Of a DNA stretch of 64,000 bases, positions 2,526-59,317 are shown in pieces (the first letter of the stretch is position 1; each line of letters starts with the position of its first letter). Source of the stretch: Candidatus Doudnabacteria bacterium. GTDB taxonomy: Bacteria; Patescibacteriota; Doudnabacteria; UBA920; O2-02-FULL-48-8. Under the pieces are notes generated by a model, which was not told the origin of the DNA, made no database searches, and was given only the letters and a program-made list of their open reading frames with translations. The stretch spans positions 12,488-76,487 of the forward strand of contig JACPKU010000006.1 in assembly GCA_016186915.1 (NCBI GenBank). Reading direction: 5' to 3'. Made by a program: the position numbers and the translations under genes.

Positions 2526-2559
2526 GGTTAAGAATTAAACAAGCCAAAGACCGTAGACG

Positions 2560-2692
2560 GCTAAAACGCCTTAAAAAACACAAGTCTACGCAGGAAAATG
2601 AGATCCTGAAATGAATTCAGGATTGCAAAACAGCGCAATGCTGAACTTGATTCAGCATCTCAAAATTCCGGCCTTTGGATCCGGGTTTTTTT
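2560..2692 (+). promoter_or_regulatory. Putative ribosomal protein L10 leader / attenuator (3 stem-loops plus terminator-like hairpin with U7)
   Basis: Hairpins cgtagac..gtctacg, atcctgaa..ttcaggat and atgctgaa..ttcagcat, then ccgg..ccgg followed by TTTTTTT (2686-2692) about 30 nt before the rplJ ATG. Confidence 0.45.
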
Positions 2693-2723
2693 ATTCTAAA
2701 TTCAAAATTCTATATTCTAAACT

Positions 2724-3245
2724 ATGGCGATTACACGTAAGCAAAAAGAAGAATCATTGAGAGAAGTGACCGAGGATTTAAAAAATGCCCGGGGAGTTGT
2801 GTTTGCGGAATATGCCGGACTGAGCGTTAAAGACATGGATAAGGTGCGCAAAGATTTGAGAAAAGAGAATGTAAAGTTCAAAGTTTTGAAAGTGACTCTT
2901 TTGAAAAAAGCGATGAATAGTCTGAATATGGATCTGGGCAAGTTTGCATATGCCGGACCTTTGGCCGTGGCGGTTTCAAAAGAAGAAGAAACCACACCGG
3001 CGCGCGTGATCAAGGGCTTGATGAAAAATTTCCCAACTTTAAAAATTGACGGCGGAATTTTTAATAACGAGATAGTCGCCCGGGACGTGGTTTTGCAGCT
3101 GGCCGCCCTGCCCAGCAAAGACCAACTGCTGGGACAACTGCTCTCGGTGATTGCGGGTCCGGCAAGAGGATTGGTTACCGTGCTTTCTGGAAATACCAGG
3201 GACTTGCTGCAAGTATTAAATGCAATCGGTGAAAGTAAGAAATAA
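2724..3245 (+). CDS. rplJ: 50S ribosomal protein L10
   Basis: MAITRKQKEE..VVFAEYAGLSVKDM..LRKENVKFKVLK typical uL10; upstream of rplL. Confidence 0.95.
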   Translation: MAITRKQKEESLREVTEDLKNARGVVFAEYAGLSVKDMDKVRKDLRKENVKFKVLKVTLLKKAMNSLNMDLGKFAYAGPLAVAVSKEEETTPARVIKGLMKNFPTLKIDGGIFNNEIVARDVVLQLAALPSKDQLLGQLLSVIAGPARGLVTVLSGNTRDLLQVLNAIGESKK

Positions 3246-3303: not shown

Positions 3304-3711
3304 ATGTCTGAAGAAGTAAAACAAGTTGCGGTTCCTGAAAAGTTTCAAAGTTTAGTGGGGGAGATTGAGAAACTTTCAGTGCTGGAACTTTCAGAGCTCG
3401 TCAAGGTTTTGGAAGAAAAGTTTGGTGTGTCCGCCGCGGCTCCAGTCGCAGTCGCCGCTGGACCTGCCGCGGCAGGAGATGGCGAAGGAGCTGAGGAAAA
3501 ATCTGAATTTACAGTTGAACTTACCGAGGCCGGCGCTAGCAAAATCAACGTGATTAAAGTCATCCGAGAAGTTATGGGAGTGGGTCTGAAGGAAGCAAAA
3601 GATTTAGTGGACGCCGCTCCAAAGATGGTCAAAGAGAACGTAGCGAAGGCCGAAGCAGAAGAGTTGAAGAAGAAGCTAGAAGAAGCGGGAGCGAAGGTGA
3701 GTTTGAAATAA
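3304..3711 (+). CDS. rplL: 50S ribosomal protein L7/L12
   Basis: N-terminal dimerisation helix, Ala/Pro hinge, C-terminal domain [24 protein letters not shown]..; good RBS gaaagga. Confidence 0.95.
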
Positions 3712-4230
3712 CGCTCGTGCAGCCGGCAAAACTACCGGCAGTAAAAGTCTGCTGACTTTTCTGCCTACTCGCTCGCGCCGAAGCAACTGCGCGGGTTAGT
3801 TTTGCAGCTGCACATCACGCTTCTTCCAGGGGATAGGGAGAGGAAAGGCGGGAGAAGAAGCGGGAGCGAAGGTAACATTGAAATAAGTCACTCGGCATAG
3901 GTTACAAATTTAACGGCTGTCAAACTCTGCTGAGTTTGCAGCCTGGAACGTCAGACGTTCCCTGCGTCCTCGGACCGTCGTCCTGCGGAAGCTAAATTTG
4001 CAACTATGCCTCGCGTCCCGTTCTTCCAGTGAAAAAGAAACGGATAGTGAGAGGAAGCGGGAGCGAAAGTTAGTTTGAAATAATTTAAAAACAGACGCTT
4101 GTTCGACACGCGGTAAATTTGACTGGACGTCAAATTTACCGGATTGTCTCACAAGGTCTGTTTTTAATTTGCTTCTGCTTTGGGGAAGAAATAGAAGGCA
4201 AGGAAAGCGGGCTGGACAAAGGGCTGATTT
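3679..4230 (+). repeat. Three tandem degenerate copies of the rplL 3' end (33 nt each: 3679-3711 genuine, 3854-3886, 4051-4083) separated by hairpin-rich ~140-165-nt spacers, plus a weaker fourth copy ~4170-4228
   Basis: Direct alignment of gaagaagcgggagcgaaggtgagtttgaaataa with copies 2 and 3 (29/33 identical each); copies 2 and 3 also share an upstream ttcttccag..gagaggaa segment; perfect hairpins at 3945-3961 and 4111-4141. Confidence 0.8.
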
Positions 4231-4329
4231 TCTGCTATAATAATTATAACGATACTATATGGGCTAGCCAAAAATGGACAAGTTAGCCAATATGGCGTGA
4301 GCGAAACCAAAAATAAAATAAAAAGAAAA

Positions 4330-4420
4330 GCGATACGAATATTGCGAATTCACACACGAAAGATGCGAATCTTTGCCTGATTCGTGTCATTCGCATGTTA
4401 TATTCGTAGTTTCGCATCGC
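4330..4420 (+). promoter_or_regulatory. Operator-like inverted repeats built from TGCGAAT/ATTCGCA and GATGCG/CGCATC upstream of the HTH gene
   Basis: gatacgaatattgcgaat..gatgcgaatctttgcctgattcgtgtcattcgcatg..tcgcatcgc read from the sequence. Confidence 0.4.
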
Positions 4421-4431
4421 TGACACAAAAG

Positions 4432-4668
4432 ATGGCAGAGGAGTTTTCTGGCAATAAATTGCTGACTTTGAAAGAAGCAGCAGCGCTTTCTCCGTACAGC
4501 GCGGAGTATTTAAATTTGCTTGCGAGAAAAAAGAAGATTAAGGCGCGCAAGATCGGCCGTGACTGGTTAATTACCAAGACCGATCTTTTTGATTACCTTA
4601 AAAAACAGCACAGTGAAAGCAGGAACAGGGTGTTGCAGCTAAGTAAGTACATAGGATTACTTTTATGA
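4432..4668 (+). CDS. Helix-turn-helix DNA-binding protein, excisionase/MerR-like (HTH_17) family
   Basis: LLTLKEAAALSPYSAEYLNLLARKKKIKARKIGRDWLITKTDLFDYL matches the excisionase-family HTH pattern; start chosen at MAEEF (the upstream ATG at 4384 lies inside the palindromic region). Confidence 0.55.
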   Translation: MAEEFSGNKLLTLKEAAALSPYSAEYLNLLARKKKIKARKIGRDWLITKTDLFDYLKKQHSESRNRVLQLSKYIGLLL

Positions 4669-6026: not shown

Positions 6027-6680
6027 ATGTTTCATCGTCGAGCCACACAACTTTTTTACGGGATTTCAAGCTTAGTGATTTCAGTCGCTGTGTTTTTAGT
6101 CTTGCCATTCGGGTTTGGCGAGCTGCAGGAGTTTAAAAAGGACATAAGGAATCAATTTACGCAAGCCTTTATCCAAACAATAGGGGATCAGCCGTTTGTG
6201 GCTGACCACGTGAGTCTAGTCTGGTCTAGTATAAATAATTTCTATAATCAAGCAACAGACAGCACTCTGGCCTTGCTTGCGCCGGGTGGCAGCGAAGACG
6301 ATTTGATGAGGATTGCGTGGGGAGTGAGGGATCGATTTGCGGCGATTGTCCGTGATTTGGAATATGCGAGGACAGGCCGCTTCGACAGGCTCAGGACAGG
6401 AAGAGTGGCCGGAGAAAACAGCGATCCCCGCCTTCGTCAAGACTTCGGCGGGCAGGCGAATCTAACGAATATACATCCGAATGATCCGAAATTTATGACT
6501 GAAGAGCCTTTGAGGAATATTGTCCCGGAAAGCCTTTTGATCGATGATCAGCCGCGCAACAATGATTTTCCGTGGGTGACACTGCAAGACAATATCACTG
6601 GTCAATTTTATTGCGTGGCGATTTATGACGAGGAGGTAAATAAATATCTTGGGCCATGTAAGTTGGATTTAGGGGAATAA
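6027..6680 (+). CDS. Membrane-anchored hypothetical protein (FYNQATDSTLAL motif shared with the downstream paralogue)
   Basis: N-terminal TM; motif NNFYNQATDSTLALL compared with DEFYNAATDEATALF in the 6783 gene. Confidence 0.5.
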   Translation: MFHRRATQLFYGISSLVISVAVFLVLPFGFGELQEFKKDIRNQFTQAFIQTIGDQPFVADHVSLVWSSINNFYNQATDSTLALLAPGGSEDDLMRIAWGVRDRFAAIVRDLEYARTGRFDRLRTGRVAGENSDPRLRQDFGGQANLTNIHPNDPKFMTEEPLRNIVPESLLIDDQPRNNDFPWVTLQDNITGQFYCVAIYDEEVNKYLGPCKLDLGE

Positions 6681-6686
6681 ACCAAA

Positions 6687-6710
6687 AACCGCCTTTCGGC
6701 GGTTATGGTT
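6687..6710. terminator. Hairpin aaccgcc-tttc-ggcggtt after the 6027 gene (T-run is better on the minus strand)
   Basis: Perfect 7-bp stem; weak U-tract on the plus strand. Confidence 0.4.
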
Positions 6711-6782
6711 AAACTCTAACATAATGTTTTCAGTCGGGATTGTCATCTAAGAATATAGTAACAGAACAGAATAATTATAGCA

Positions 6783-7190
6783 ATGCCAAAAAGAAAAATA
6801 AAAAAGAATAGTTCTCGCAGGCACACGACGAGGAAGCCAAAACATTACCCAGTATATTATCTGGCGGCACTGGTGATTGCTTTTCTGCTTTTGGAAATCG
6901 CGTTGCTTGGCAGTGCCAGGATCAAAGATTGGCAGGAGAGTTTTGGGATTCTGGATGTATCTGAGCAATACGAAGACTTGGTAGATGATTTAAGCTTTAC
7001 TTTTAGTCCGATGGCGCAGGCGGTTTCAGCGGTTGATGAATTTTATAACGCAGCCACTGATGAGGCGACGGCTCTTTTCGACGCCACAGATAGTATCTAC
7101 GAAAATATGAAAGTTTACGAAAATACGAAAAAGTTTGCCCTCAGTGTTTTTAGTAACAGATCCGGCAGTGTAGCAGGAGCAAAAGAATAG
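6783..7190 (+). CDS. Small basic membrane-anchored protein, paralogue of the 5117/6027 family
   Basis: Lys/Arg-rich N-terminus, then TM, then EFYNAATDEATALFDATDSIYE combining both family motifs. Confidence 0.45.
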   Translation: MPKRKIKKNSSRRHTTRKPKHYPVYYLAALVIAFLLLEIALLGSARIKDWQESFGILDVSEQYEDLVDDLSFTFSPMAQAVSAVDEFYNAATDEATALFDATDSIYENMKVYENTKKFALSVFSNRSGSVAGAKE

Positions 7191-7229
7191 GTCGGATAAG
7201 TAAATATATGACCTATAATATTTATATAA

Positions 7230-10200
7230 ATGCTCAATAAAAAACAAACCAAGTTTATTACTAAAGGGTTTAAGATTCTAACCGGTGCAATATTCGTCCT
7301 GGCGGTTTTTGGATCTCTGGTTTCTCCGCAAGCTGCATCTTCAACCACTCTAACCATCCAAGGCGATCATTTTTTGTTAAACGGCCAGGCCAAGTTTTTG
7401 GTCTTGGCTGCTTATTTTGACGGCTTGGACGCGCCCAATGTGGGCGCGGATTTGGATTACCTCAAGTCCAAAGGAATTGACGGCGTGCGCGTGTTTCCAA
7501 ACTGGTGGGACACCACGACGCCGTTGATTTTTGGCAATACTTTAATGAACACGGACGGCAGTTTGGACGCGGGCAGATTAAATGATTTACGGAGTATCAT
7601 CAGCGCTGCCGACAGTCGAGGGATGGTAGTGGATGTGAGTTTTGCCCGCGAGACCGTGGATGGGCCGTGCAATACAGGTGGTAGAAATATGATGTGTGAA
7701 AATGAATACAAAAATGGTGTGGTCGCCACAGTGCAACAGTTGAGCAGTTACAGCAACGTGCTTTATGATTTGCAAAACGAATTTGACGGTGGCATTACGA
7801 ATTTATCCTCCAGTCACGTCTCGGATTTGAAAAATCGAGTGAGAGCCGCGGATTCGAGTGCGACGATTTCCGCCTCCACTGGCTCATATCCTGGCGCGGG
7901 CAGCGCGGCGGCAGGTTATACGAACCAATACGGGTTTGACTTTACCAATGTGCACAGCACGCACCTGACCAGCGCTTCTGGCGTGGCGGGCATGATCTCG
8001 CCGGCCCGTTCGGCAGGCAAGCCGGTTTATCTCGGCGAACCTTATCATTCCACTTTTATTTCCGGCGGCCAGGCGACGGCCTCCGAATTGTTAAATTTTG
8101 CCACGGAAACCAAAAGAACCGGAGCCGCGGCGTTTGTTTATCACACTCGCGCCGGCTTTATTCTGGACGGCTCGAGTTTCCAGGGGAATATGACCGCGGT
8201 GGAAACCAGCTTTCTTAACTCTCTCGCGAATTCTTTAAGTCAAACCACTTGGGGAGTCAATTTAATCAGCCCGCCGCCTCCACCGCCGCCTCCTGGTACT
8301 GATCCGACACCAAGCCCAACGGGTCGCGTAATTAGTTCGCTGAGCCCCACCACGGTTCAGCCGGGAGACACGATGACCATTGATGGTGTCAATCTTGACA
8401 GCACGGTTCAGATTTTCAACAGCAGCAATCTGAGAAGCACTTATGTTGGCCAGATCAATGCGTCTGAAACCCAGGTTACTTGGCTGATCCCTGCGGATTT
8501 AGCCAATGGTTCGTATAGGCTGCGGGTCGGGCCAAACCTGACTGATTATTCGAATTTAATGCCTTTCACAATCACAGGCAGCACTGTGCCACCACCGCCG
8601 CCTCCACCTCCACCACCACCGCCCATAGATTACAGTCCAGAGATACCAGATTGGGTTGACTGCAGCGCCATTCCGGAAGATCTGACCCTGTTATCAGAAT
8701 GGAATTTTTGGTGCGGGATTACGCCCCAGCCGCCACCACCGCCACCACCAGGCCAGGACCCAAGCAATCCTTTGAGCTTGCCCGGAAGTGGAGCTTATGG
8801 CATGAGTATGGCTTACAATCCGACTAACAATACTTTTTTGTATGTCAGCACTGAAGGAATCGGCACCCCGCCCAATGTCCAATCCCGGCTAATCGGCGCC
8901 ATTTTGGACGCTGACGACCTGGCTGTGATCGGTGGTAGTTTTCGGGTTGACCAAGGGGATGAATTCGCGGCCTCGCCCCAAGTGGTCTACAATCCTGACC
9001 AAGACCAGTTTTTGGTAGTGTGGGAGGATTCGCGCGCCGGCAATAACCGCCGGCACATTTACGGCCGGCTGTTTGGAGCAGACGGCAGTCCCTTGGGCAA
9101 TGACTTTGTGATTGTTGACTTGTTTGACGCGTTTTTGAACGATTTGATTTATGATGACGGCAATAAAAAATACGTGGTGCTGTTTGAAGCAGGCGAGCCG
9201 ATGTTTCGAACCGTGGATGCTTCCGGCAATTTAGGCCCCATAGTCAAAGTCGTACCGCAATTAACAGAGTACCAAGGACAAGGCAATTTTACTTACAATT
9301 CTAATTTGAATGAGTATTGGACCGTGTATGTGGCAGGAGTCAGCGGTTCTGACACGCAAGAGGAAGACGACCGGATAATGCTGATGAGGACTGACGCTAC
9401 CACGTTACAGCCTGTCGGTCAGCCAGTTCAATTAAGCGCCACCAGGCCAGCCAGAAACGGTTTTGCCGAACCAAAAATCGCGTATAGCAAGTATGACGGC
9501 GCGGCCATGACGGTTTGGCTGGAACGCGGCCGGCCTGGTGAGGGCGCAGGAGTCTATGGCCGGACAGTGTATGATGATTTAAGTTTATCAGGGGAATTTC
9601 CAGTGATTACGCCTGTTACTTCTCCCTACTCTGACCAATACGGCGCCCCGCAGCTTAATTACAATCCTTACACCGGCTTGTTTTCAGTCAGCACGCTGGA
9701 TAATAACGGCGGGACCATGCTGACGGAACTGCTGGTTGACGGGACTGTTTTAGGAGAAGATCAGGTAATCGGACCTACTGGGTCGCTGGGCAATTTCAAT
9801 CCGAACAGCTATGTTGGTCCGCAAGGGACGATTGTGGCAGCCTCCACGGATTTCGCCTCCACCAGTGCGACGATGAACCGAAGTCTGTTTGCCAACTTAG
9901 GCCCGGAAAGCCAGGGCGGGAGCGGCACGGTTTATCCGCCGGGAACCCCGCCAACTCCCGTGGACACCACGGTTTTGGGCAAACTGATCAGCCAGATTTA
10001 TCTCTGGTCGCTGGGAGTCTCGGCTTTGCTGGCCATGTTGATGATGGTGCTTGGCGGATATCTGGTTATGACTGCGGCGGGTAATGCTGAGCAATCTAGC
10101 AAAGGCAAAGAATTCATCTGGTCCGCAATAATTGGCATGGGGTTGTTGTTTGCTTCTTACCTAATATTAAACACAATCAACCCGGATCTGGTCAACTTTG

Positions 10201-34909: not shown

Positions 34910-34932
34910 TTTAACAAACAATAAATAATAAC

Positions 34933-34956
34933 TTATAATACTTTAACGTATTATAA
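34933..34956. promoter_or_regulatory. Perfect palindrome TTATAATAC-TTTAAC-GTATTATAA (copy 1) upstream of the yerC-like gene
   Basis: Read directly; the conserved core AATACTTTAACGTATTATAA is also at 35357-35380 and 59294-59317. Confidence 0.7.
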
Positions 34957-34957
34957 C

Positions 34958-35353
34958 TTGAACGATATGACAAAAATATCGAGGAAAAAACTTTCTGAAG
35001 ACAAAATGGGCTTGTTGATTGATCAACTTTGGCGTGGATTTGCCTCCCTCAAAGACAAAGACGAGGTTCATGAATTTTTACATGATTTATTATCTCGAAC
35101 TGAAATCCAGATGCTGGCTAAACGTTTAGAAGTAGTTCGACTGCTTAATGAAGGTTGGAAATACGAGGAAATTAAAAACCGGTTAAATATCAGTGAAGCG
35201 ACCATCTCGAAGATAAATAATTGGAAAGAGGCGTTTGGCCAAGGTTATCAGAAGGTTATAGAAAGACTTAAGCGAGAAAGTGAGAAGAGAAAAAGAAAAT
35301 TACCGGGATTTGTAAAGAGCAGTCGATCGGCTGCAGCAAGTATTTGGAGTTAA
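34958..35353 (+). CDS. TrpR-related YerC/YecD-family HTH regulator
   Basis: LSRTEIQMLAKRLEVVRLLNEGWKYEEIKNRLNISEATISKIN matches the YerC/YecD (TrpR-like) family pattern. Confidence 0.75.
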   Translation: MNDMTKISRKKLSEDKMGLLIDQLWRGFASLKDKDEVHEFLHDLLSRTEIQMLAKRLEVVRLLNEGWKYEEIKNRLNISEATISKINNWKEAFGQGYQKVIERLKRESEKRKRKLPGFVKSSRSAAASIWS

Positions 35354-35356
35354 AAC

Positions 35357-35380
35357 TTAAAATACTTTAACGTATTATAA
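35357..35380. promoter_or_regulatory. Palindrome copy 2 (TTAAAATAC-TTTAAC-GTATTATAA) downstream of yerC-like, upstream of rmlC-like
   Basis: One mismatch in the left arm relative to copy 1. Confidence 0.7.
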
Positions 35381-35400
35381 GTTAAAGTTTAATCAAATAT

Positions 35401-40014: not shown

Positions 40015-41103
40015 ATGCAGTCATATTTATCCAATCCAATAAACACGCGTTCCCCCAAGGAAATTCATAGAATTCTCAAACTTGGCGATAATGTTGTGTT
40101 GCCTCTGCAGGCGGAACCTATGCCACGAAAGCCAAGCAAATTGATTTTGGCAGGCAGTTGGCTTTGGAGAAAAATTAAGCCGCATACTCCTAAGCTTTTT
40201 TATCCTGTGGTATTTATCGTGGCTTTTGCCTTTTTTTACACGCTATTCAATTTTTCTTCCTTGGTCAGCCAGGTGGACGCGGTGTTTAACAACCAATCGC
40301 AGGATGAAGTGATTTTGGGCGAAGATATCGGCGACTACTACGAATGGATTAGCCGCTATTACTTTGCCGTGAGCGACAAGAAGTTGCTTTCAGCCACCAA
40401 TGATATTGACGAGGACGGTCTTGCTAATTATGACGAGTTTGTTTTACAGACCAATCCCACTGTTCTTGACTCTGACAACGACGGCGTAAGCGACGGACTG
40501 GAGGTTATTAACCAAACCAACCCTTGGGGCCAAGGCAGCATGACCCAAGACCAGCTCAAATCAAGCGAGCCGCTTGATTTGATTATGATTAACAACCGAA
40601 TCAGTTTCAACATCGCAAATCATCAATCAAACGCTTCAAACAATCCGAAGATCGATTATGATTTGGAAAAACACGGCACGCTTTCAATCCCCAAACTTAA
40701 TCTGCAAGTGCCAATCGTCTGGACCAAAGATCCGGCAAGTTTCAGCGAAGACCTAAAGAATGGTGTGGTGCATTATCCAGGCACCGCGTTGCCCGGGGAG
40801 CCGGGAGTGGTATATATTGCCGGCCACTCTTCTGATTATATTTGGAACAACCATCCATATACTCGCGTCTTTGCCAAGCTGAATTTTCTAGAACCAGGCG
40901 ATGACGTCTTTGTGGATGTTACTGGAGCAGACGGACAAATTCGAAACTTTCGTTATGTGGTGACTGAAGAAAATGTATACAACCCAGACGATCAAGCACA
41001 GTTTATTGACGATTCGACCGCCAAGCTCAATCTTTCCACCTGTTGGCCGATTGGAACCCAGAGAGATAGATACGTGGTTTCTGCTGTTTTGGAAGGGATA
41101 TAA
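40015..41103 (+). CDS. Sortase-family transpeptidase with N-terminal TM and thrombospondin-type-3-like Ca-binding repeats
   Basis: Catalytic His in YIAGHS and Cys in LNLSTCWP (TLxTC-type) plus conserved R in RDRYVV; DIDEDGLANYDE..DSDNDGVSDGLE acidic DxDxDG repeats; alternative start at MPRKPS (40120). Confidence 0.8.
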   Translation: MQSYLSNPINTRSPKEIHRILKLGDNVVLPLQAEPMPRKPSKLILAGSWLWRKIKPHTPKLFYPVVFIVAFAFFYTLFNFSSLVSQVDAVFNNQSQDEVILGEDIGDYYEWISRYYFAVSDKKLLSATNDIDEDGLANYDEFVLQTNPTVLDSDNDGVSDGLEVINQTNPWGQGSMTQDQLKSSEPLDLIMINNRISFNIANHQSNASNNPKIDYDLEKHGTLSIPKLNLQVPIVWTKDPASFSEDLKNGVVHYPGTALPGEPGVVYIAGHSSDYIWNNHPYTRVFAKLNFLEPGDDVFVDVTGADGQIRNFRYVVTEENVYNPDDQAQFIDDSTAKLNLSTCWPIGTQRDRYVVSAVLEGI

Positions 41104-41202
41104 CCTTGACAATGGTGTTGACAATTGGCAAGATTTTTGCTAGCATTGTCAGTTAATAACTAAGCATTAATTAACATAAGCATTAATTAACACATTCAAT
41201 AT

Positions 41203-44200
41203 ATGAATTTCATAGCTGCCAGAAAAAATAGATATTTTATTAAAAGCAAAACCGCTAAGTTTGTCGGTTTGGGCTTCGTGTTGGCTCTAACCGTTTCTTT
41301 TATTGGATTTTCACTGGCTAACCACAACAGCGGCACTGGAATCCCGGTGGACACTGGCTGGATTGACGCTTCTAGATTTGTTGGAAGCGTGGAGTTTGAT
41401 TGTGGCCAGACCGTGGGTTCAGTCTGGGGGCAAAGAGGTGACCAATTCACGATTCCAGGACATGTTTTAAATATTCCGGAAGGTTCATATACGATTGATA
41501 TCCGCGCTCATTATGGGTTTTATGAAGCAGACCCACAAGCGCCGCAAACCAATGAAACTATGAGAGTAAGCACCTCTGTTGCTTCCAGACAAATCCCTGA
41601 TTTGAATGGCCATGGCGGATCTAGACCTGACAGAGACAACTGTGATCAGATCAACGCTAATTTTAGAATTTACACCAACATTACCCGCAGTCCGATTAAC
41701 TACCAGGACGGTGGGATTAGATTTGCCGGCTTAACCTCAGATTCGCAGAGTATCAGCATTCAGGCGGTGCGGGTGCATGGCACTTCAACTCCTCCGCCCC
41801 CGCCTCCGCCGCAGCCGTGCGTGCCAGTGGGTTTGATTATGCCGCAAAGCGGGCAGGTATTTGGGGCCAATGAGACCAACCCTGCTTTCCAGTGGCAGGG
41901 GACCAACCGGACCTTCTATATCCTGGACATTACCGAGGATCCGAACTTTTCTTGGTGGTGGAATAATGGCAGTGGCGCTGGCGGCGGTATTCAAATTACT
42001 TCTGCTAATTTTTCGGACGTCACCAATACTTTCTACTCCCAAGGGCACCCCGCTCCGGGATTGGCTCAAGCCGGCAAAACTTATTACTGGCGAGTGTTTG
42101 CTTACAATACGGACGATCCGGGCGCTGGCTGTCACTCAGTCGTGAGGTCGTTCTCTTTGCAATCAACTCCGCCGCCGCCCCCGCCTCCTCCTCAAAAAGC
42201 CCAAATTACCTTAGTCAAAGAAGTGATCAACAACAACGGTGGCAACAAGCAGCCCTCAGATTTCGCCTTACATATCGCGGGGCACACGTTAACCAGTGGC
42301 CAATCTGTCGAACTTAACCCCGGCAATTATCAAGCTACGGAAACTCAGCAAGCCGGTTATGCCTTGTTAGGTTGGCGAGGCGCTTGTGATGGTAGCGGTA
42401 GCGTAACCTTGCAAGCCGGTCAGAACGTGACTTGTGTAGTAACCAATGATGACCAAGCCCAGCCTACTGTTTCGTTGTCTTTAGTGAAAAATGTGCGAAA
42501 CGTGACCCAAGGGCAAACCACATTTGTAGATTCAGTTTCCGCCCAGCCAAACGAACAGGTAGAGTTCAGAATCCAAGTGGCGGCTTCTGGCAACACCAGC
42601 GCCCAAAACGTCGTGGTGACTGATACTCTGCCAAATAACTTTAATCTTAGTTCCGGTAGTTTAACCAACAATCTAGGCAACATGTCAGCCGGCAGCACTC
42701 AAATCATAACCTTGAGCGCTACTGCTGCCTCGGCCTTTAACTTCCCAATCGGTTCGTCCACTTGGATCAATACCGCTACAGCTACCGCCTCTAACGCCAA
42801 CACGGTTTCAGACACTGCTCACGTGGTAGTTAACCGCCAAATTACCGGTACCCCCAGCCTGACCATTGACAAAACTGTCCGAAACGTCACAGCCGGCCAA
42901 GCAATATTTAGCAATTCTGTATCAGCCAACCCGCAAGATCAAGTGGAATTCAAAGTTGTTGTGAGCAACGTCGGACAGGCCACAGCCAACAATGTGGTGG
43001 TGACTGATACTCTGCCAAATAACTTTAATCTTAGTTCTGGCAGTTTAACCAACAATCTAGGCAACATGTCAGCCGGCAGCACTCAAATCATAACCTTGAG
43101 CGCCACTGCTGCCTCTGCCTCTAACTTCCCCATCGGTTCGTCCACTTGGACCAATACTGCTACGGCTACCGCTTCTAATACCAATACGGTTTCTGATACC
43201 GCCAATGTGATTGTAGAAAGAGACGGACCACCTGGCGATGCTCAACTAAGTATCACCAAAGAAGTCAGAAACGTTACTCAAGGAGTAGCTTTCTTTTCTA
43301 AATCCGCATCAGCTCAGCCAAACGAACAAGTCGAGTTTAGAATCCGCGTTCGATCAACTGGTCAAACTACAGCCAACAATGTGAACCTGACTGATATTTT
43401 GCCAAATAACTTTGTATTGAACTTTGCCCAGACGGGCGCAGGAGTCAGCGGCTCCAACACCCAGTTTAGTTTGGGCAATATGCCGACGAACACTGAAAGA
43501 ACTCTGTCCTTGTTTGTGACTGCGGCTTCAGCCGCCAATTTCCCAATCGGCACCAGCACTCACACCAACACAGCCACTGCCACAGCCTCTAACGCCAATT
43601 CCGTCTCTGACAATGCTTCAGTCGTGATTAACCGGGACGGCGGAGGCAATGGCAACCCATTCTTAGCAATCACGAAAGAAGTAAGAAATCTCACTGACAA
43701 CACGGGCTATTCTCATTCAGTAACCGCGGATGACAGCGATCGCGTAGAGTTTAGAATTGTTGTGCGAAACACCGGCAGCTCAAACTCTACTGCTACCAAC
43801 GTTCGCGTGACGGATTTCTTGCCGGCCAACCTGGAATTTGTTGCCAGTACGTTAAGGATTGACAGCAACACGCAGTTTAGCAATAACCTGCTTGGCAATA
43901 TTTTCTTAGGCAATCTGTCTGCGAATCAGAGCAAAACTATTACCTTTGAAGCAAGGGTAAATGCCAACTTCAACAATACGCTGATAAACACTGCCACTGC
44001 TTTCTCGGACAACACCTCGCCAGTCAATGACAGCGCCAGCGTGTTCGTCTCGCGCGTGGTTGGCGGAAATATTGATCTGGTCTTGAGCAAGTCCGCGTAT
44101 AACTTAACTCAAGGACGGGACGCTACCGCGGTAACCGCGCGTGCAGGCGATCAGATTGAATACATTTTGCGCGTAGAAAATCGCGGCAACGCCACTGCCA

Positions 44201-44583
44201 CCAACTTCGTCATTGAGGACAGCATTGCGGACATTCTGGAACTGGCTGACCTGCTTAGCTATTCTGGCGCCACATTTGACTCAAGCGCTCGGGTACTTCG
44301 ATGGCCGTCTGAAAATATTGGGGCCGGGCAAACTGTAGAGAAAAGATTCTCTGTCCGGGTAAAAAGCCCTGTTCCTGGCGGCACTGATCTGGTTATGACT
44401 AATGTCTACGGCAACACGGTCAGAGTACCGGTTGGCACCCCGCCTTCTGTTCCTCCTCCCGTGTATCCTCCGTACAAAGCTCCGCCCACCGGCCCTGCCA
44501 CCACTTTCAGTTTGATCTTGGCTGGCTTGACTGTCGCGGGAGCGTTCGGGATTAAAAAAATTAAGCAAGCCTCGAGAGCATGA
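41203..44583 (+). CDS. Large cell-surface protein: N-terminal TM, two fibronectin/Ig-like modules separated by polyPro linkers, about 6 DUF11 repeat domains, C-terminal sorting-signal-like tail
   Basis: Repeated L(S/T)(L/I)xK.VRNVTQG..F..SVSAQPNEQVEFRI.V...G...A.NV.VTD.LP modules (DUF11 pattern); C-terminal KAPPTGPATT + hydrophobic + KKIKQASRA. Confidence 0.8.
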   Translation: MNFIAARKNRYFIKSKTAKFVGLGFVLALTVSFIGFSLANHNSGTGIPVDTGWIDASRFVGSVEFDCGQTVGSVWGQRGDQFTIPGHVLNIPEGSYTIDIRAHYGFYEADPQAPQTNETMRVSTSVASRQIPDLNGHGGSRPDRDNCDQINANFRIYTNITRSPINYQDGGIRFAGLTSDSQSISIQAVRVHGTSTPPPPPPPQPCVPVGLIMPQSGQVFGANETNPAFQWQGTNRTFYILDITEDPNFSWWWNNGSGAGGGIQITSANFSDVTNTFYSQGHPAPGLAQAGKTYYWRVFAYNTDDPGAGCHSVVRSFSLQSTPPPPPPPPQKAQITLVKEVINNNGGNKQPSDFALHIAGHTLTSGQSVELNPGNYQATETQQAGYALLGWRGACDGSGSVTLQAGQNVTCVVTNDDQAQPTVSLSLVKNVRNVTQGQTTFVDSVSAQPNEQVEFRIQVAASGNTSAQNVVVTDTLPNNFNLSSGSLTNNLGNMSAGSTQIITLSATAASAFNFPIGSSTWINTATATASNANTVSDTAHVVVNRQITGTPSLTIDKTVRNVTAGQAIFSNSVSANPQDQVEFKVVVSNVGQATANNVVVTDTLPNNFNLSSGSLTNNLGNMSAGSTQIITLSATAASASNFPIGSSTWTNTATATASNTNTVSDTANVIVERDGPPGDAQLSITKEVRNVTQGVAFFSKSASAQPNEQVEFRIRVRSTGQTTANNVNLTDILPNNFVLNFAQTGAGVSGSNTQFSLGNMPTNTERTLSLFVTAASAANFPIGTSTHTNTATATASNANSVSDNASVVINRDGGGNGNPFLAITKEVRNLTDNTGYSHSVTADDSDRVEFRIVVRNTGSSNSTATNVRVTDFLPANLEFVASTLRIDSNTQFSNNLLGNIFLGNLSANQSKTITFEARVNANFNNTLINTATAFSDNTSPVNDSASVFVSRVVGGNIDLVLSKSAYNLTQGRDATAVTARAGDQIEYILRVENRGNATATNFVIEDSIADILELADLLSYSGATFDSSARVLRWPSENIGAGQTVEKRFSVRVKSPVPGGTDLVMTNVYGNTVRVPVGTPPSVPPPVYPPYKAPPTGPATTFSLILAGLTVAGAFGIKKIKQASRA
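42607..43215 (+). repeat. Intragenic ~200-bp near-identical (~90%) tandem duplication inside the DUF11 gene
   Basis: gtggtgactgatactctgccaaataactttaatcttagtt..caacatgtcagccggcagcactcaaatcataaccttgagcgc occurs at ~42613 and ~42997. Confidence 0.8.
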
Positions 44584-50652: not shown

Positions 50653-50678
50653 ACAGAGAACGAGAATCAAACGTAACA

Positions 50679-50692
50679 TTCACGATCGTGAA
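50679..50692. promoter_or_regulatory. Perfect 14-bp palindrome TTCACGATCGTGAA (copy 1) 15 nt upstream of the PaaX-like gene
   Basis: Extended 27-nt match ttcacgatcgtgaaaaag(g/a)cgttag shared with copy 2 at 51324-51350. Confidence 0.7.
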
Positions 50693-50706
50693 AAAGGCGT
50701 TAGATC

Positions 50707-51267
50707 ATGAAAGCGAGCACAAAAAGGAAAATCAAAAAGAAAAGCCTCCAGCTCACCAAACAAATATTGGTAACTTTAGCAACAGCTCCGAAAGCTCTTT
50801 TTGATATTTTTATAGATAGCAGTCCTTATACCAGACGTTTGTTTGCTGACCGTGAAATTACTCGGAGTCAATTGCAACGCGCAATACAGGATTTAAAAAG
50901 GCAGCGCTTAATTAAGATGAGGGAATATAAGCAAAAACTGATTTATGAGCTAACTGACCTGGGAAGAGCGCAAATGCTTCGGTGGAATTACAAATTTCGC
51001 CCTAAGCAAGAGAGACGAGATGGCTTAGGCACCATCGTGATATTTGACATCCCTGAAACTAAACGGCAGGCGCGTGATTTCTTGCGGCGTTTTTTAAAAG
51101 AGAATCAATTCACTCAGTTGCAGAAAAGTGTGTTTATTGGACGGTTTTGGCTACTGGCAGAGTTTTATGATTTATTGACTGAACTTCGAATAGTAGAACA
51201 TGTATCAGTGTTGGAAGGACGAATTCCACATACGACTGCTAATAATCGTTTTAGAAACCGTTCCTAA
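50707..51267 (+). CDS. PaaX-like small transcriptional regulator (winged-helix N-terminal domain + Cas2-fold middle domain)
   Basis: LIYELTDLGRAQMLRW (wHTH) followed by GTIVIFDIPETKRQARDFLRRFLKENQFTQLQKSVFIG (Cas2-like beta-alpha-beta pattern seen in the PaaX central domain). Confidence 0.55.
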   Translation: MKASTKRKIKKKSLQLTKQILVTLATAPKALFDIFIDSSPYTRRLFADREITRSQLQRAIQDLKRQRLIKMREYKQKLIYELTDLGRAQMLRWNYKFRPKQERRDGLGTIVIFDIPETKRQARDFLRRFLKENQFTQLQKSVFIGRFWLLAEFYDLLTELRIVEHVSVLEGRIPHTTANNRFRNRS

Positions 51268-51317
51268 ATTATTAATTGTGGTGTAATGGTAAATAACCGT
51301 AAACTTAATTTTCTAGC

Positions 51318-51350
51318 GTATAATTCACGATCGTGAAAAAGACGTTAGGG
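51318..51350 (+). promoter_or_regulatory. -10 box TATAAT fused to palindrome TTCACGATCGTGAA (copy 2): repressor-type operator overlapping the promoter of the purM-like gene
   Basis: tagcgTATAATTCACGATCGTGAAaaagacgttag read directly. Confidence 0.65.
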
Positions 51351-59267: not shown

Positions 59268-59293
59268 ATGTGTGACATATCACAAAATAAAAG

Positions 59294-59317
59294 GTAAAAT
59301 ACTTTAACGTATTATAA
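59294..59317. promoter_or_regulatory. Palindrome copy 3 (TAAAATAC-TTTAAC-GTATTATAA) upstream of the small basic protein + GT2 genes
   Basis: Core AATACTTTAACGTATTATAAG is identical to copy 2. Confidence 0.7.

Follow-up and report, generated by a model that had tools for sequence, protein, structure and literature searches.

In a Candidatus Doudnabacteria genome, the end of rplL, the gene for ribosomal protein L7/L12, is repeated twice downstream of the intact gene among large hairpins, and on balance we favour the reading that this array is a stack of displaced rplL ends, left by modules that were serially inserted into the end of the gene. The extra copies differ from the working end as coding sequences do, and comparable duplications flank mobile cargo in other genomes of the CPR (Patescibacteria). 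Mobile DNA and the routes of gene acquisition are poorly known in these bacteria; judging by the array and by similar loci in four further CPR lineages, the rplL end is a recurrent insertion point in their reduced genomes. We analysed a stretch of 64,000 nucleotides, here called the window, together with related loci, which are given L numbers.

Two further copies of the rplL end lie downstream of an intact gene

The L10 leader upstream of rplJ (Table 1) shows that the rplJL operon of the window is an ordinary one, and its recovery establishes that the Rfam search works on this operon. RplL itself is 100% identical to a protein of a Candidatus Doudnabacteria MAG. The last 33 nt of the gene (R1) recur twice (R2 and R3), with repeat starts 175 and 197 nt apart and 142-164 nt between copies; a 30-nt pattern searched with up to three mismatches matched three times in the window, compared to 0.00 matches expected from 100 shuffles. 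The array probably lies in the 3' UTR of rplJL and would be transcribed with it.

An earlier sequence-only reading had placed all three copies correctly, and its identity of 29/33 gave way to a count of 30/33 for each displaced copy. The fourth echo that it described at ~4170-4228 dissolved on scoring (15, below the shuffle median of 16), and an extra look-alike at 4295-4321 scored 19, only the 90th percentile of shuffles. This look-alike sits in the region upstream of the HTH_17 gene, alignable by eye with L039. As for the segment thought to be common to the second and third copies, TTCTTCCAG does precede both (3821-3829 and 4021-4029), whereas GAGAGGAA occurs twice but out of register, 9 nt upstream of copy 2 and overlapping the first 4 nt of copy 3. 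The linkers before R2 and R3 match the part of rplL upstream of R1 at only 11 of 30 ungapped positions, a likeness that is only compositional; between themselves they share direct repeat D6 (3831-3856 and 4042-4067, 77%).

Table 1. Features of the rplJL locus and the array, in window coordinates
Feature	Position	Strand	Description
L10 leader	2526-2701	+	upstream of rplJ; Rfam RF00557, 41.5 bits (gathering 44), E = 1.6e-5, full-length
rplJ (ribosomal protein L10)	2724-3245	+	ORF of 173 aa; the identical gene on L081-L084 has PF00466 Ribosomal_L10
rplL (L7/L12)	3304-3711	+	intact, 135 aa; Pfam Ribosomal_L12_N and Ribosomal_L12 on the identical protein
R1	3679-3711	+	functional final 10 codons and stop of rplL; reference copy of the repeat
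U1	3717-3813		multi-branched hairpin module; outer 7-bp + 9-bp stem, hairpin P1 (GGCAG-T-AAAAGTC, TGCT loop), second hairpin
anti-R(A)	3815-3829		inverted copy of rplL 3676-3690 (CTAGAAGAAGCGGGA); contains TTCTTCCAG; inverted repeats I4 (15 nt, 87%) and I10
Purine-rich linker	3830-3853	+	partial R-like half-site GAGGAAAGGCGGGA (3840-3853) abutting R2; read from the sequence
R2	3854-3886	+	displaced rplL end; codes EEAGAKVTLK*; not translatable in place; 30/33 to R1
U2	3894-4010		U1 paralogue with an extra hairpin (GGAACGTCAGACGTTCC, 3944-3960)
anti-R(B)	4012-4029		inverted, slightly gapped copy of the R 5' part (CGCGTCCCGTTCTTCCAG); read from the sequence
R3	4051-4083	+	displaced rplL end; TAG TGA directly before; 30/33 to R1
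U3	4085-4167		long near-perfect hairpin; A-tract before, T-tract after; inverted repeats I2 and I7
Promoter-like site (HTH_17 operon)	4213-4241	+	TGGACA, 17 nt, TATAAT, with TG; 11/12 match in promoter scan
HTH_17 gene	4432-4668	+	78 aa; Pfam PF12728, E = 8e-10; overlaps the start of the next gene

The displaced copies vary as coding sequence and are not translatable in place

The base differences among R1, R2 and R3 (G>A, G>C, T>A, A>G, G>A and G>T) fall almost entirely where they leave the encoded peptide unchanged. Relative to R1, R2 has one synonymous and one Ser-to-Thr codon change, and all three changes in R3 are synonymous (P = 0.0076 for random placement), bearing out the earlier statement that the substitutions are synonymous or conservative, with one Ser/Thr codon as the sole exception to synonymy. 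Equally sound were the in-frame stops reported upstream: counted back from the stop codon of each copy, they lie 28 codons away for R2 and 10 for R3; for R2 this places a stop 18 codons 5' of its first codon. Translation of R2 and R3 as small ORFs or by readthrough was considered and rejected, given these upstream stops, an ORF list of the window with no entry ending at R2 or R3, and, by coordinate arithmetic, a frame of R2 that differs from that of rplL. Since the differences are coding-like, yet R2 and R3 are untranslatable where they now lie, each copy was, or periodically is, a working rplL end.

The array is reproduced across assemblies and does not stand in for rpoBC

The array was found at 99.96-100% identity in four Logan assemblies of different sequencing runs (SRR12113420, SRR12113424, SRR12113384 and SRR12113383), and agrees in the NCBI MAG. 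All public copies of the locus were identical, with no excised or variant state among them, and the exact repeat pattern had 0 matches in a metagenome scan.

The sequence-only reading had assumed that rpoBC is to be expected after rplL in CPR and was here replaced by the array, a premise that proved false. An RpoB-like gene lies in the downstream flank of only five of 178 sequences (177 loci and the window), four of which are titled or labelled as non-Patescibacteria while the fifth, L125, has no organism label; rpoB was absent after rplL in the close CPR relatives examined, including L039 and the syntenic L087. Since these relatives lack it, the observation that had been named as a refutation, rplL followed directly by rpoB in relatives, does not apply, and the idea of a recombination hotspot that relocated rpoBC loses its support with the same count. 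An assembly artefact, in the form of a repeat that was collapsed or chimeric, or loss of rpoBC from the locus by rearrangement is thus scarcely credible: the earlier expectation of rpoBC was all that spoke for it, whereas four independent assemblies reproduce the array, the three copies differ mutually and are therefore no collapsed repeat, and rpoB is so seldom found downstream of rplL. For annotation, such arrays are by themselves evidence neither of missing rpoBC nor of novel riboregulators.

Large, paralogous hairpin units accompany the copies

Each copy is followed by a hairpin unit, U1 to U3, in which the window contains no ORF. The region 3670-4240 folds far more stably than its shuffles (z = -7.65 on the plus and -10.35 on the minus strand), single units reaching z of about -5 to -10.3: U1 with an MFE of -52.9 kcal/mol and z = -5.45 (+) and -4.86 (-), U2 with -54.3 kcal/mol (+, z = -5.5) and a better minus-strand fold of -68.4 (-, z = -8.0), and U3 with -43.3 (+, z = -7.4) and -45.3 kcal/mol (-, z = -10.3). 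The GC content of the array is 51-54%, compared to 29-41% in neighbouring non-coding stretches. The hairpins described earlier are therefore real, including the perfect 13-nt arms at 4111-4123 and 4129-4141, with two amendments: the GGAACGTCAGACGTTCC hairpin lies one base from the position first given (Table 1), and GGCTG-T-CAAACTC/GAGTTTGCAGCC, described as perfect, has a 1-nt bulge.

Terminal inverted repeats of 12-15 nt (I4 and I10), formed by the 5' part of R and anti-R, bound the units; anti-R(B) pairs with the 5' part of R3 in the MFE fold, and its TTCTTCCAG constitutes direct repeat D7. U3 is probably the bidirectional terminator of the rplJL operon; a simple terminator scan did not list it, and a T-run is lacking in both U1 and U2. 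These two units are paralogous, agreeing in order and architecture, and share a conserved bulged T in P1. In a hand alignment, 11 of their 28 pairs changed on both sides (compensatory); every variable stem pair is Watson-Crick in both units, and G-U intermediates are absent (G-U pairs number 2 on the plus and 7 on the minus strand in the full MFE folds). Compensation of this all-Watson-Crick kind suits DNA palindromes and RNA equally well.

No second copy of U1, U2 or U3 was found in the window, in ~1.4 Mb of related loci (blastn, nhmmer) or in viral contigs, where pattern scans also gave 0 matches, and a structural search for P1-type hairpins in 2.78 Mb (both strands) recovered only U1, U2 and one chance match. 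The array region holds no tRNA or tmRNA.

These features could be taken to describe a functional structured RNA, either a long rplJL 3' UTR that stabilises, processes or attenuates the mRNA or minus-strand sRNAs with anti-rplL, in which R and anti-R would be alternative pairings. The very strong folding of both strands, the high GC content, the pairing kept through the double changes, the complementarity of the anti-R boxes to R 5' parts (I4, I10), the better minus-strand fold of U2 and a further promoter-like sequence (minus strand, 4271 to 4243) that points into the array all agree with such a function. We nevertheless hold it to be quite improbable: no Rfam family appeared even at E up to 10 (nothing better than E = 4 with the Rfam 15 covariance models over 3600-4450), no related locus holds a homologue and hence there is no conservation across genomes, a plain terminator suffices in the syntenic L087, an RNA function leaves the codon-periodic conservation of R2 and R3 unexplained, and the Watson-Crick-only variable pairs are accounted for no worse by DNA palindromes or by self-correction of palindromes. 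What remains of the earlier suggestion of a non-coding RNA or attenuator array is thus a structure that is real and maintained between U1 and U2, but that has no homologue in the related loci, Rfam or the viral contigs.

The paralogy of U1 and U2 also allows that one unit was duplicated in situ in the window, a point that counts against insertion. In its full form, this account holds that slippage or unequal crossing-over duplicated the rplL end together with its 3'-UTR hairpin in tandem, with no foreign DNA, and that gene conversion from R1 and selection acting through R1 kept the R copies alike. Nothing lies between the units, no recombinase was found in the Pfam-scanned ORFs, and a long structured 3' UTR follows rplL in L039 too, all of which suits such a history. 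The degree of conservation does not: R1 and R2 are 91% identical, whereas U1 and U2, when aligned, agree at only ~60% of U1 positions, so that the repeat is far better conserved than the rest of the unit. At the latter rate, untranslated copies such as R2 and R3 would be expected to carry about a dozen random changes, but each has three, almost all of them synonymous. With the evidence from other lineages, considered below, we regard in-situ duplication as rather unlikely.

Close relatives have unoccupied sites, and the downstream genes are resident

In the syntenic L087, rplL is followed by a simple terminator, a promoter and then a homologue of the window's 149-aa gene. In L039, another Doudnabacteria genome, the spacer after rplL is structured but of a different kind, and a terminator, a promoter and an orthologue of the HTH_17 gene follow, with no repeats. 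Both thus provide unoccupied sites for comparison with the window, as L029 and L122 do for L010. L177, which is among the closest RplL relatives, has a convergent gene directly after rplL.

The right limit of the array is marked by the promoter-like site of the HTH_17 operon, whose TTGCTATAAT region has homologues in L039 and L087. The HTH_17 gene beyond it had been described as an excisionase-family gene. A role as excisionase of an integrated element was considered and rejected: its orthologue in L039 occupies the matching position and is 67% identical, and the gene overlaps the start of a conserved downstream gene. It is a conserved Doudnabacteria resident, regulator-like and outside the repeat system.

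Duplicated rplL ends recur in other CPR lineages, some around mobile cargo

A duplicated rplL end was present in ~3% of CPR rplL loci. Four of ~160 related loci fetched by RplL similarity carry one (L010, L063, L110 and L137), and it was also seen in the window and in L168. Among 2293 ORF ends tested, genuine duplication occurred at rplL only. The duplicated segment measures 33, about 45, 51 or 68 nt depending on the lineage, a variability that a single fixed crossover site fits poorly.

The pattern of substitution seen in the window holds across these loci, with 26 of the 30 bases that differ between copies falling in synonymous or stop-to-stop codon changes. All changes were synonymous in L137 (10/10, P < 5e-5), L063 (5/5, P = 2.5e-4) and L110 (5/5, P = 5e-4). 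In L137 the ten changes are spread over 51 positions, a degree and kind of divergence that is neither that of recent gene conversion nor that of neutral drift and so speaks against in-situ duplication. Homogenisation, which in-situ duplication calls for, is suggested by L010, where the two copies are identical (28/28), and by L168, where the repeats are 95-97% identical, the non-coding terminator included.

In L063, L168 and L172 repeats of this kind flank mobile cargo, a further point against a history without foreign DNA. In L063 and L168 the duplicates flank a module of a 284-aa HATPase-like and a 120-aa STAS-like protein. The same module is found immediately downstream of tRNA-His in L172, where a direct repeat of 64 nt begins within the 3' end of the tRNA, and downstream of tRNA-Gln in L175, next to HicBA or Fic genes. 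A HicBA cassette in L168 interrupts the displaced copy exactly at the 33-nt boundary.

L010 carries a terminator of foreign type, and what was inserted there matches the terminator of another lineage rather than L010's own copy, again contrary to duplication in situ. The sequence and terminator after its R2 match the unoccupied L122 just after the stop codon (score 71, compared to 36 for the sequence after R1); with L029 the difference was small (43 compared to 39). The sequence after R1 (T1 and a small hairpin) instead matches what L155, a member of another lineage, has as its native terminator region (score 55), and also the inserted module of L110. A small patch of the L010 rplL is closer to another lineage, a mosaic that would be more in keeping with ordinary homologous recombination than with a dedicated recombinase. 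No integrase or recombinase was found near the duplicates of L010, L063 or L110. By eye, anti-R was not evident in the units of L010, L110, L063 and L137.

Serial insertion of replacement ends as the favoured explanation

To account for the array we propose a succession of insertions, in which small DNA modules entered rplL within its conserved last ~33 nt. Every one of them would have brought a synonymous replacement of the final 10 codons and stop, followed by a large hairpin, and each insertion would have restored an intact rplL while pushing the prior end downstream. By analogy with L010, the gene would at first have ended in R3, with U3 as its bidirectional terminator, and R2-U2 and finally R1-U1 would have been added later. 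Recombination may have taken place inside the block that encodes E-(E/A)-A-G-A. Today the extra copies are untranslated, any action of U1 and U2 would be limited to that of RNA or DNA hairpins, and U3 would serve as the terminator. We infer the order of insertion, the recombination mechanism, transcription through the array and any present function of the hairpins.

Two mechanisms could produce such a series. A site-specific recombinase might act in trans on the rplL end as attB, as in the accretion of streptococcal ICEs and CIMEs; alternatively, homology-facilitated recombination might have taken up foreign rplL-end DNA. The first is close to one of the earlier suggestions, that the copies are att scars of elements integrating at the rplL 3' end. 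The comparative evidence favours this, although the HTH_17 gene is a resident and a Pfam scan of window ORFs (10 genes downstream of the array, 3 upstream and most ORFs of 280-1126 aa) recovered no integrase or other recombinase. A counterpoint is size, as the ORF-less spacers of 142-164 nt are much smaller than any characterised integrative element.

A bolder version, which we consider unlikely, envisages an undescribed cassette system of CPR in which the last ~33 nt of rplL, along with tRNA ends, would serve as attachment site. Its modules would consist of a synonymous replica of the gene end and a hairpin acting as both recombination site and terminator, some of them empty and others carrying defence- or TA-like genes; either a recombinase whose gene lies elsewhere or the host's own recombination machinery would add them at the head of the array. 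The window would then represent its minimal, ORF-less form.

Whichever mechanism is responsible, serial insertion would leave a recognisable trace: the inserted DNA must supply a working gene end, and the resulting signature is a set of untranslated copies that differ only synonymously. This signature can be searched for, and could point to integration hot spots, to their cargo (HATPase/STAS, HicBA and Fic modules) and to any recombinase responsible.

Comparison with known systems

Judged as a site-specific element, the array has repeats that overlap the intact 3' end of the target, and relatives with unoccupied sites; a recombinase was not found in the Pfam-scanned ORFs. Cargo lies between the repeats of L063 and L168 (HATPase-like and STAS-like genes, HicBA) and a foreign-type terminator in L010; the units of the window have neither an ORF nor a homologue in the loci searched.

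Two classes were rejected. A CRISPR array does not agree with copies 175 and 197 nt apart, with paralogous structured units between them, or with one copy being the coding end of rplL, and the scanned neighbours gave no Cas-related Pfam match. Nor is this a diversity-generating retroelement, as the differences are not adenine-specific and the Pfam-scanned neighbouring genes include no RT.

REP/BIME and MITE-type palindromes resemble the array as GC-rich, strongly folding units of ~100-200 bp downstream of a highly expressed gene, with inverted repeats of 12-15 nt. They differ in that the array has no dispersed copies in the 64-kb window or the related loci, one of its terminal repeats is the coding end of rplL, and a target-site duplication is not evident.

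Integrons and CALINs, and the Xer-dependent IMEX arrays at dif (CTX phage), share with the array serial insertion at one site, small cassettes of which some have no ORF, hairpin sites and independence from a recombinase in cis. One could accordingly take the last 33 nt of rplL for the attachment site of integron-like cassettes whose ORF-less units fold as single-stranded recombination sites, in the manner of attC or the CTX-phage attP, with the recombinase encoded elsewhere. The layout, with insertion at the head of the array beside a strongly expressed gene, would agree with this, as would the pairing in each unit of R with an inverted partial R, whose duplex could mimic the target, the conserved bulged T and Watson-Crick-only pairing of U1 and U2, and the occurrence, at the rplL site of other CPR genomes, of cassettes that bring promoters of their own along with defence- or TA-like cargo. 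We still judge it very improbable. None of the canonical attC boxes is in place: RYYYAAC and GTTRRRY were each matched a single time, which is chance level (~0.55 expected per strand and motif), with the two matches on opposite strands (3908 and 3914) and off the unit borders. Neither an IntI with an attI adjacent to the array nor another recombinase was found among the Pfam-scanned ORFs of the window, the attachment site would lie inside coding sequence, the anti-R element is not apparent in the other four loci, and we know of no circular or excised form.

Homology-facilitated illegitimate recombination is known from transformation studies in Acinetobacter and pneumococcus. As the alternative to site-specific recombination, it would explain the foreign modules of rplL end plus terminator (T1 of L010, which resembles L155), the mosaic patch of L010 and the lack of a recombinase. 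It normally replaces or deletes sequence, however, and does not leave an intact displaced end at a recurrent boundary; to our knowledge, it has not been described as producing arrays.

The nearest counterpart is found in streptococci, where the rplL 3' end is a documented integration site with tandem accretion, used by ICEs of the Tn5252/ICESa2603 superfamily and their deleted derivatives (PMC7168690). The likeness extends to the target gene and the part of it that is used, to direct repeats that overlap the rplL 3' end and leave the gene intact, to stacking and to empty sites in relatives. In contrast, the streptococcal elements are kilobases long and carry an integrase, often an excisionase, and conjugation genes, while the units described here span 175-197 bp, have no ORF and no integrase nearby, reside in a CPR host and are of putative mobility. 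The att core of the streptococcal rplL elements is about 15 bp, and the concept of the CIME comes from the literature on ICESt1 and ICESt3.

Islands and prophages in the 3' ends of tRNA and tmRNA genes likewise carry a replacement end and leave a displaced partial copy. Common to them and the array are the restoration of the gene end and the old end lying downstream, and cargo of the L063 type does occur after tRNA-His and tRNA-Gln; unlike theirs, the target here is protein-coding and the cassettes of the window are non-coding. A protein-coding target imposes constraint at the codon level, and hence the differences between copies are synonymous only. Replacement of a gene end is thus a known habit of mobile elements, of which the array is most likely a tiny, gene-less form.

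Results

The window stems from a Candidatus Doudnabacteria (CPR/Patescibacteria) MAG, and its rplL locus is an ordinary rplJL operon, with an RplL 100% identical to an NCBI Candidatus Doudnabacteria protein (the next closest RplL only 83%). The copies of the rplL 3' end claimed by the sequence-only reading were confirmed: besides the functional gene end (R1), the terminal 33 nt of the gene are found again, with 3 mismatches each, at 3854-3886 (R2) and 4051-4083 (R3), so that the window has 3 matches where 0 would be expected; a supposed fourth echo was not above chance. The array was unchanged in four independent Logan assemblies. The L10 leader scores just under the Rfam gathering score of 44 bits, and default annotation would miss it.

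The spacers (U1, U2 and U3, downstream of R1, R2 and R3, respectively) are as hairpin-dense as had been claimed, the inter-copy units folding far more strongly than shuffled sequence on both strands, and unit GC is 51-54% versus 29-41% in adjoining non-coding stretches. U1 and U2 share two nested outer stems plus a hairpin that closes in a TGCT loop and has a bulged T; behind each, the 5' part of R recurs in inverted form (containing TTCTTCCAG) and a purine-rich linker follows; U3 is probably a bidirectional terminator. In a hand-built, structure-derived alignment of these two sequences only, which is biased towards pairing, 16 of the 28 shared U1/U2 stem pairs are invariant, 11 are changed on both sides and 1 is broken (A·C), with no G-U intermediates. 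Such Watson-Crick-only upkeep is compatible with DNA-level recombination sites, self-correcting palindromes or an RNA-level 3'-UTR structure. The proposal of a structured non-coding RNA or attenuator has the strong folding in its favor but is unproven, as the array region has no Rfam family match and no homologue of U1-U3 offering covariation was found in ~1.4 Mb of related loci or in viral contigs. The array lacks the canonical features of integrons, CRISPR arrays and DGRs. A partial R-like half-site (GAGGAAAGGCGGGA, 3840-3853) directly adjoins R2 and resembles either the remnant of another copy or a recombination junction.

Features of the window and of related loci (L-numbers)
Feature	Position	Strand	Description
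L10 leader	2526-2701	+	full-length Rfam match, 41.5 bits, E = 1.6e-5
rplJ	2724-3245
rplL	3304-3711
U1	3717-3813		paralogue of U2, common architecture
U2	3894-4010		paralogue of U1, one additional hairpin
U3	4085-4167		near-perfect long hairpin unlike U1/U2; A- and T-tract flanks
HTH_17 gene	4432-4668		downstream of array
HATPase/STAS module	L063 6501-7743; L168 4001-5267; L172 4001-5259; L175 4001-5246

An RpoB-like gene lies in the downstream flank of rplL in only 5 of 178 fetched sequences, of which one (L125) has no organism label and the other four have non-Patescibacteria titles or labels; for these relatives it is therefore false to expect rpoBC behind rplL, and the idea of a hotspot that relocated rpoBC is wrong. 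Nor is the excisionase-family HTH_17 gene part of an element: it is resident, since a 67% identical orthologue occupies the matching locus of another Doudnabacteria genome (L039), behind a different structured spacer, terminator and promoter. In L087, which has the MS-channel/CAP/YceG/L10/L12 order and a homologue of the window's 149-aa downstream gene, rplL is followed by a plain terminator and promoter and nothing more. Judged by these loci, rplL is normally followed by a simple terminator-promoter interval, to which the array has been added.

HTH_17 is followed by genes for several hypothetical membrane proteins and for a 1000-aa protein whose C-terminus is of T4SS-pilin type; mraZ/mraW and cell-division genes lie beyond these. 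The other window ORFs scanned with Pfam encode housekeeping or cell-envelope functions, and no recombinase domain turned up in those scanned. The region upstream of HTH_17 (4335-4420), part of which can be aligned by eye with L039, contains recurring half-sites of GCGAAT/ATTCGC type (ACGAATATTGCGAAT, ACGAAAGATGCGAAT and their inverted counterparts), probably an autoregulatory operator.

Duplicated rplL ends occur sporadically across other CPR lineages (L010, L110, L063 and L137 among ~160 loci, and L168); across all cases, the window included, the duplicated segment measures 33, about 45, 51 or 68 nt. When 2293 ORF ends of those loci were scanned as a control, rplL alone showed genuine 3'-end duplication; the other hits were due to tandem paralogues, to repeats within proteins or to spurious ORFs carrying repeats. 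Separately, in several CPR genomes (L129, L145 and L146, each with an inverted repeat of 16-17 nt directly behind the rplL stop codon, and L137 at 579-625) the last rplL codons and stop form the 5' arm of the adjoining hairpin.

In every duplicate case the pattern of differences is that of coding sequence: across all cases, 26 of 30 differing bases fall in synonymous or stop-to-stop codon changes (10/10 in L137, 5/5 in L063, 5/5 in L110 and 3/3 between R1 and R3 of the window; Monte Carlo P from <5e-5 to 0.0076). The claim that substitutions in the copies are conservative or synonymous thus held, the window's single replacement being Ser/Thr, with Thr encoded by related Doudnabacteria. R is 91% conserved, versus ~60% invariant U1 positions in the rest of the paralogous units, and neutral drift since the U1/U2 split would not give this pattern. 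In L137, the copies have diverged by 20% through synonymous changes alone, which rules out neutral decay as well as recent conversion. As R is much better kept than the units, its changes are mostly synonymous and R2 and R3 are not translatable in place, the copies must once have served as functional gene ends, whether in a different genome prior to transfer or in their own lineage before displacement or between cycles of excision and insertion.

The order of insertion can be followed in L010, where the sequence and terminator after R2 match the post-stop sequence of the empty-site locus L122 with a score of 71 (36 for the sequence after R1; against L029 the scores are close, 43 and 39, respectively), and the stretch behind R1, composed of a terminator (T1) and a small hairpin, finds its match in the rplL terminator region native to another lineage, L155 (score 55), and in the module inserted in L110. 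Hence it is the distal copy that is original, and the proximal module came later. By analogy, the original end and terminator of the window would be R3-U3, with R2-U2 and R1-U1 arriving afterwards. A patch of the L010 rplL (some 90 to 50 nt before the stop) is 90-93% identical to L155, versus 80-90% to its nearest relatives L029/L122, suggesting a recombination mosaic adjoining the inserted module.

Gene cargo lies behind other rplL ends. The L063 repeats flank a two-gene module encoding an about 284-aa HATPase-like and a 120-aa STAS-like protein. In L168-L171 the repeats that flank this module behind rplL are 95-97% identical and comprise the final 68 nt of the gene together with its terminator; a HicBA cassette splits the displaced copy exactly at the 33-nt boundary. 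In L172 the module directly follows tRNA-His between 64-nt repeats whose start lies within the 3' end of the tRNA gene, and behind it come a Fic cassette and a third repeat; in L175 it follows tRNA-Gln. Its presence at these tRNA gene ends, classical integration targets, marks the module as mobile. Together with L010, these loci are evidence that incoming foreign or mobile DNA gives rise to such duplicates. It is widespread and highly conserved in CPR (55-83% identity across lineages), adjoins HicBA or Fic genes at rplL or tRNA gene ends, and in its behaviour resembles a mobile cassette of defence or TA type; its large protein weakly matches the PADLOC DrmA model. In L010, a HATPase_c_3 (413 aa) and PLD-family nuclease (DrmC-like, 344 aa) pair (6575-8870, minus strand), which looks like a defence-type pair, converges on rplL right behind the duplicated end.

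Elsewhere in the window, a partly palindromic ~21-nt motif (AAATACTTTAACGTATTATAA; ~34914-34956, 35338-35391, 59275-59317) lies upstream of sugar-nucleotide and glycosyltransferase genes and may be a common promoter or operator. Near-identical palindromic 37-mers (ACGTAACATTCACGATCGTGAAAAAGGCGTTAG; 50667-50703, 51312-51348) flank a 186-aa ORF (50707-51267), and at 40015-44583 a sortase gene precedes one for a 1126-aa DUF11/SpaA-like surface protein with 384-nt internal tandem repeats (42538-43413).

Discussion

The locus is real and unusual, and is best explained by gene-end-restoring insertion and accretion of candidate mobile units at a conserved gene 3' end. The earlier suggestion of integration scars was thus essentially right, though no recombinase was found near the CPR duplicates (Pfam-scanned window ORFs; genes near the duplicates in L010, L063 and L110). 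Because of this, the variable repeat length and the short L010 rplL patch closer to another lineage, homology-facilitated recombination with foreign rplL-end DNA, instead of a dedicated site-specific enzyme, is a serious alternative. Under gene-end-restoring insertion, untranslated copies with purely synonymous differences provide a signature by which CPR genomes can be searched for integration hot spots.

In streptococci, the rplL 3' end is the attachment site of Tn5252/ICESa2603-type ICEs, tandem accretion included (PMC7168690), of which the window array is like a miniature without ORFs. Gene-end-restoring insertion is thus known; new are the lack of an integrase found in cis, the CPR host and the 175-197-bp hairpin-only units.
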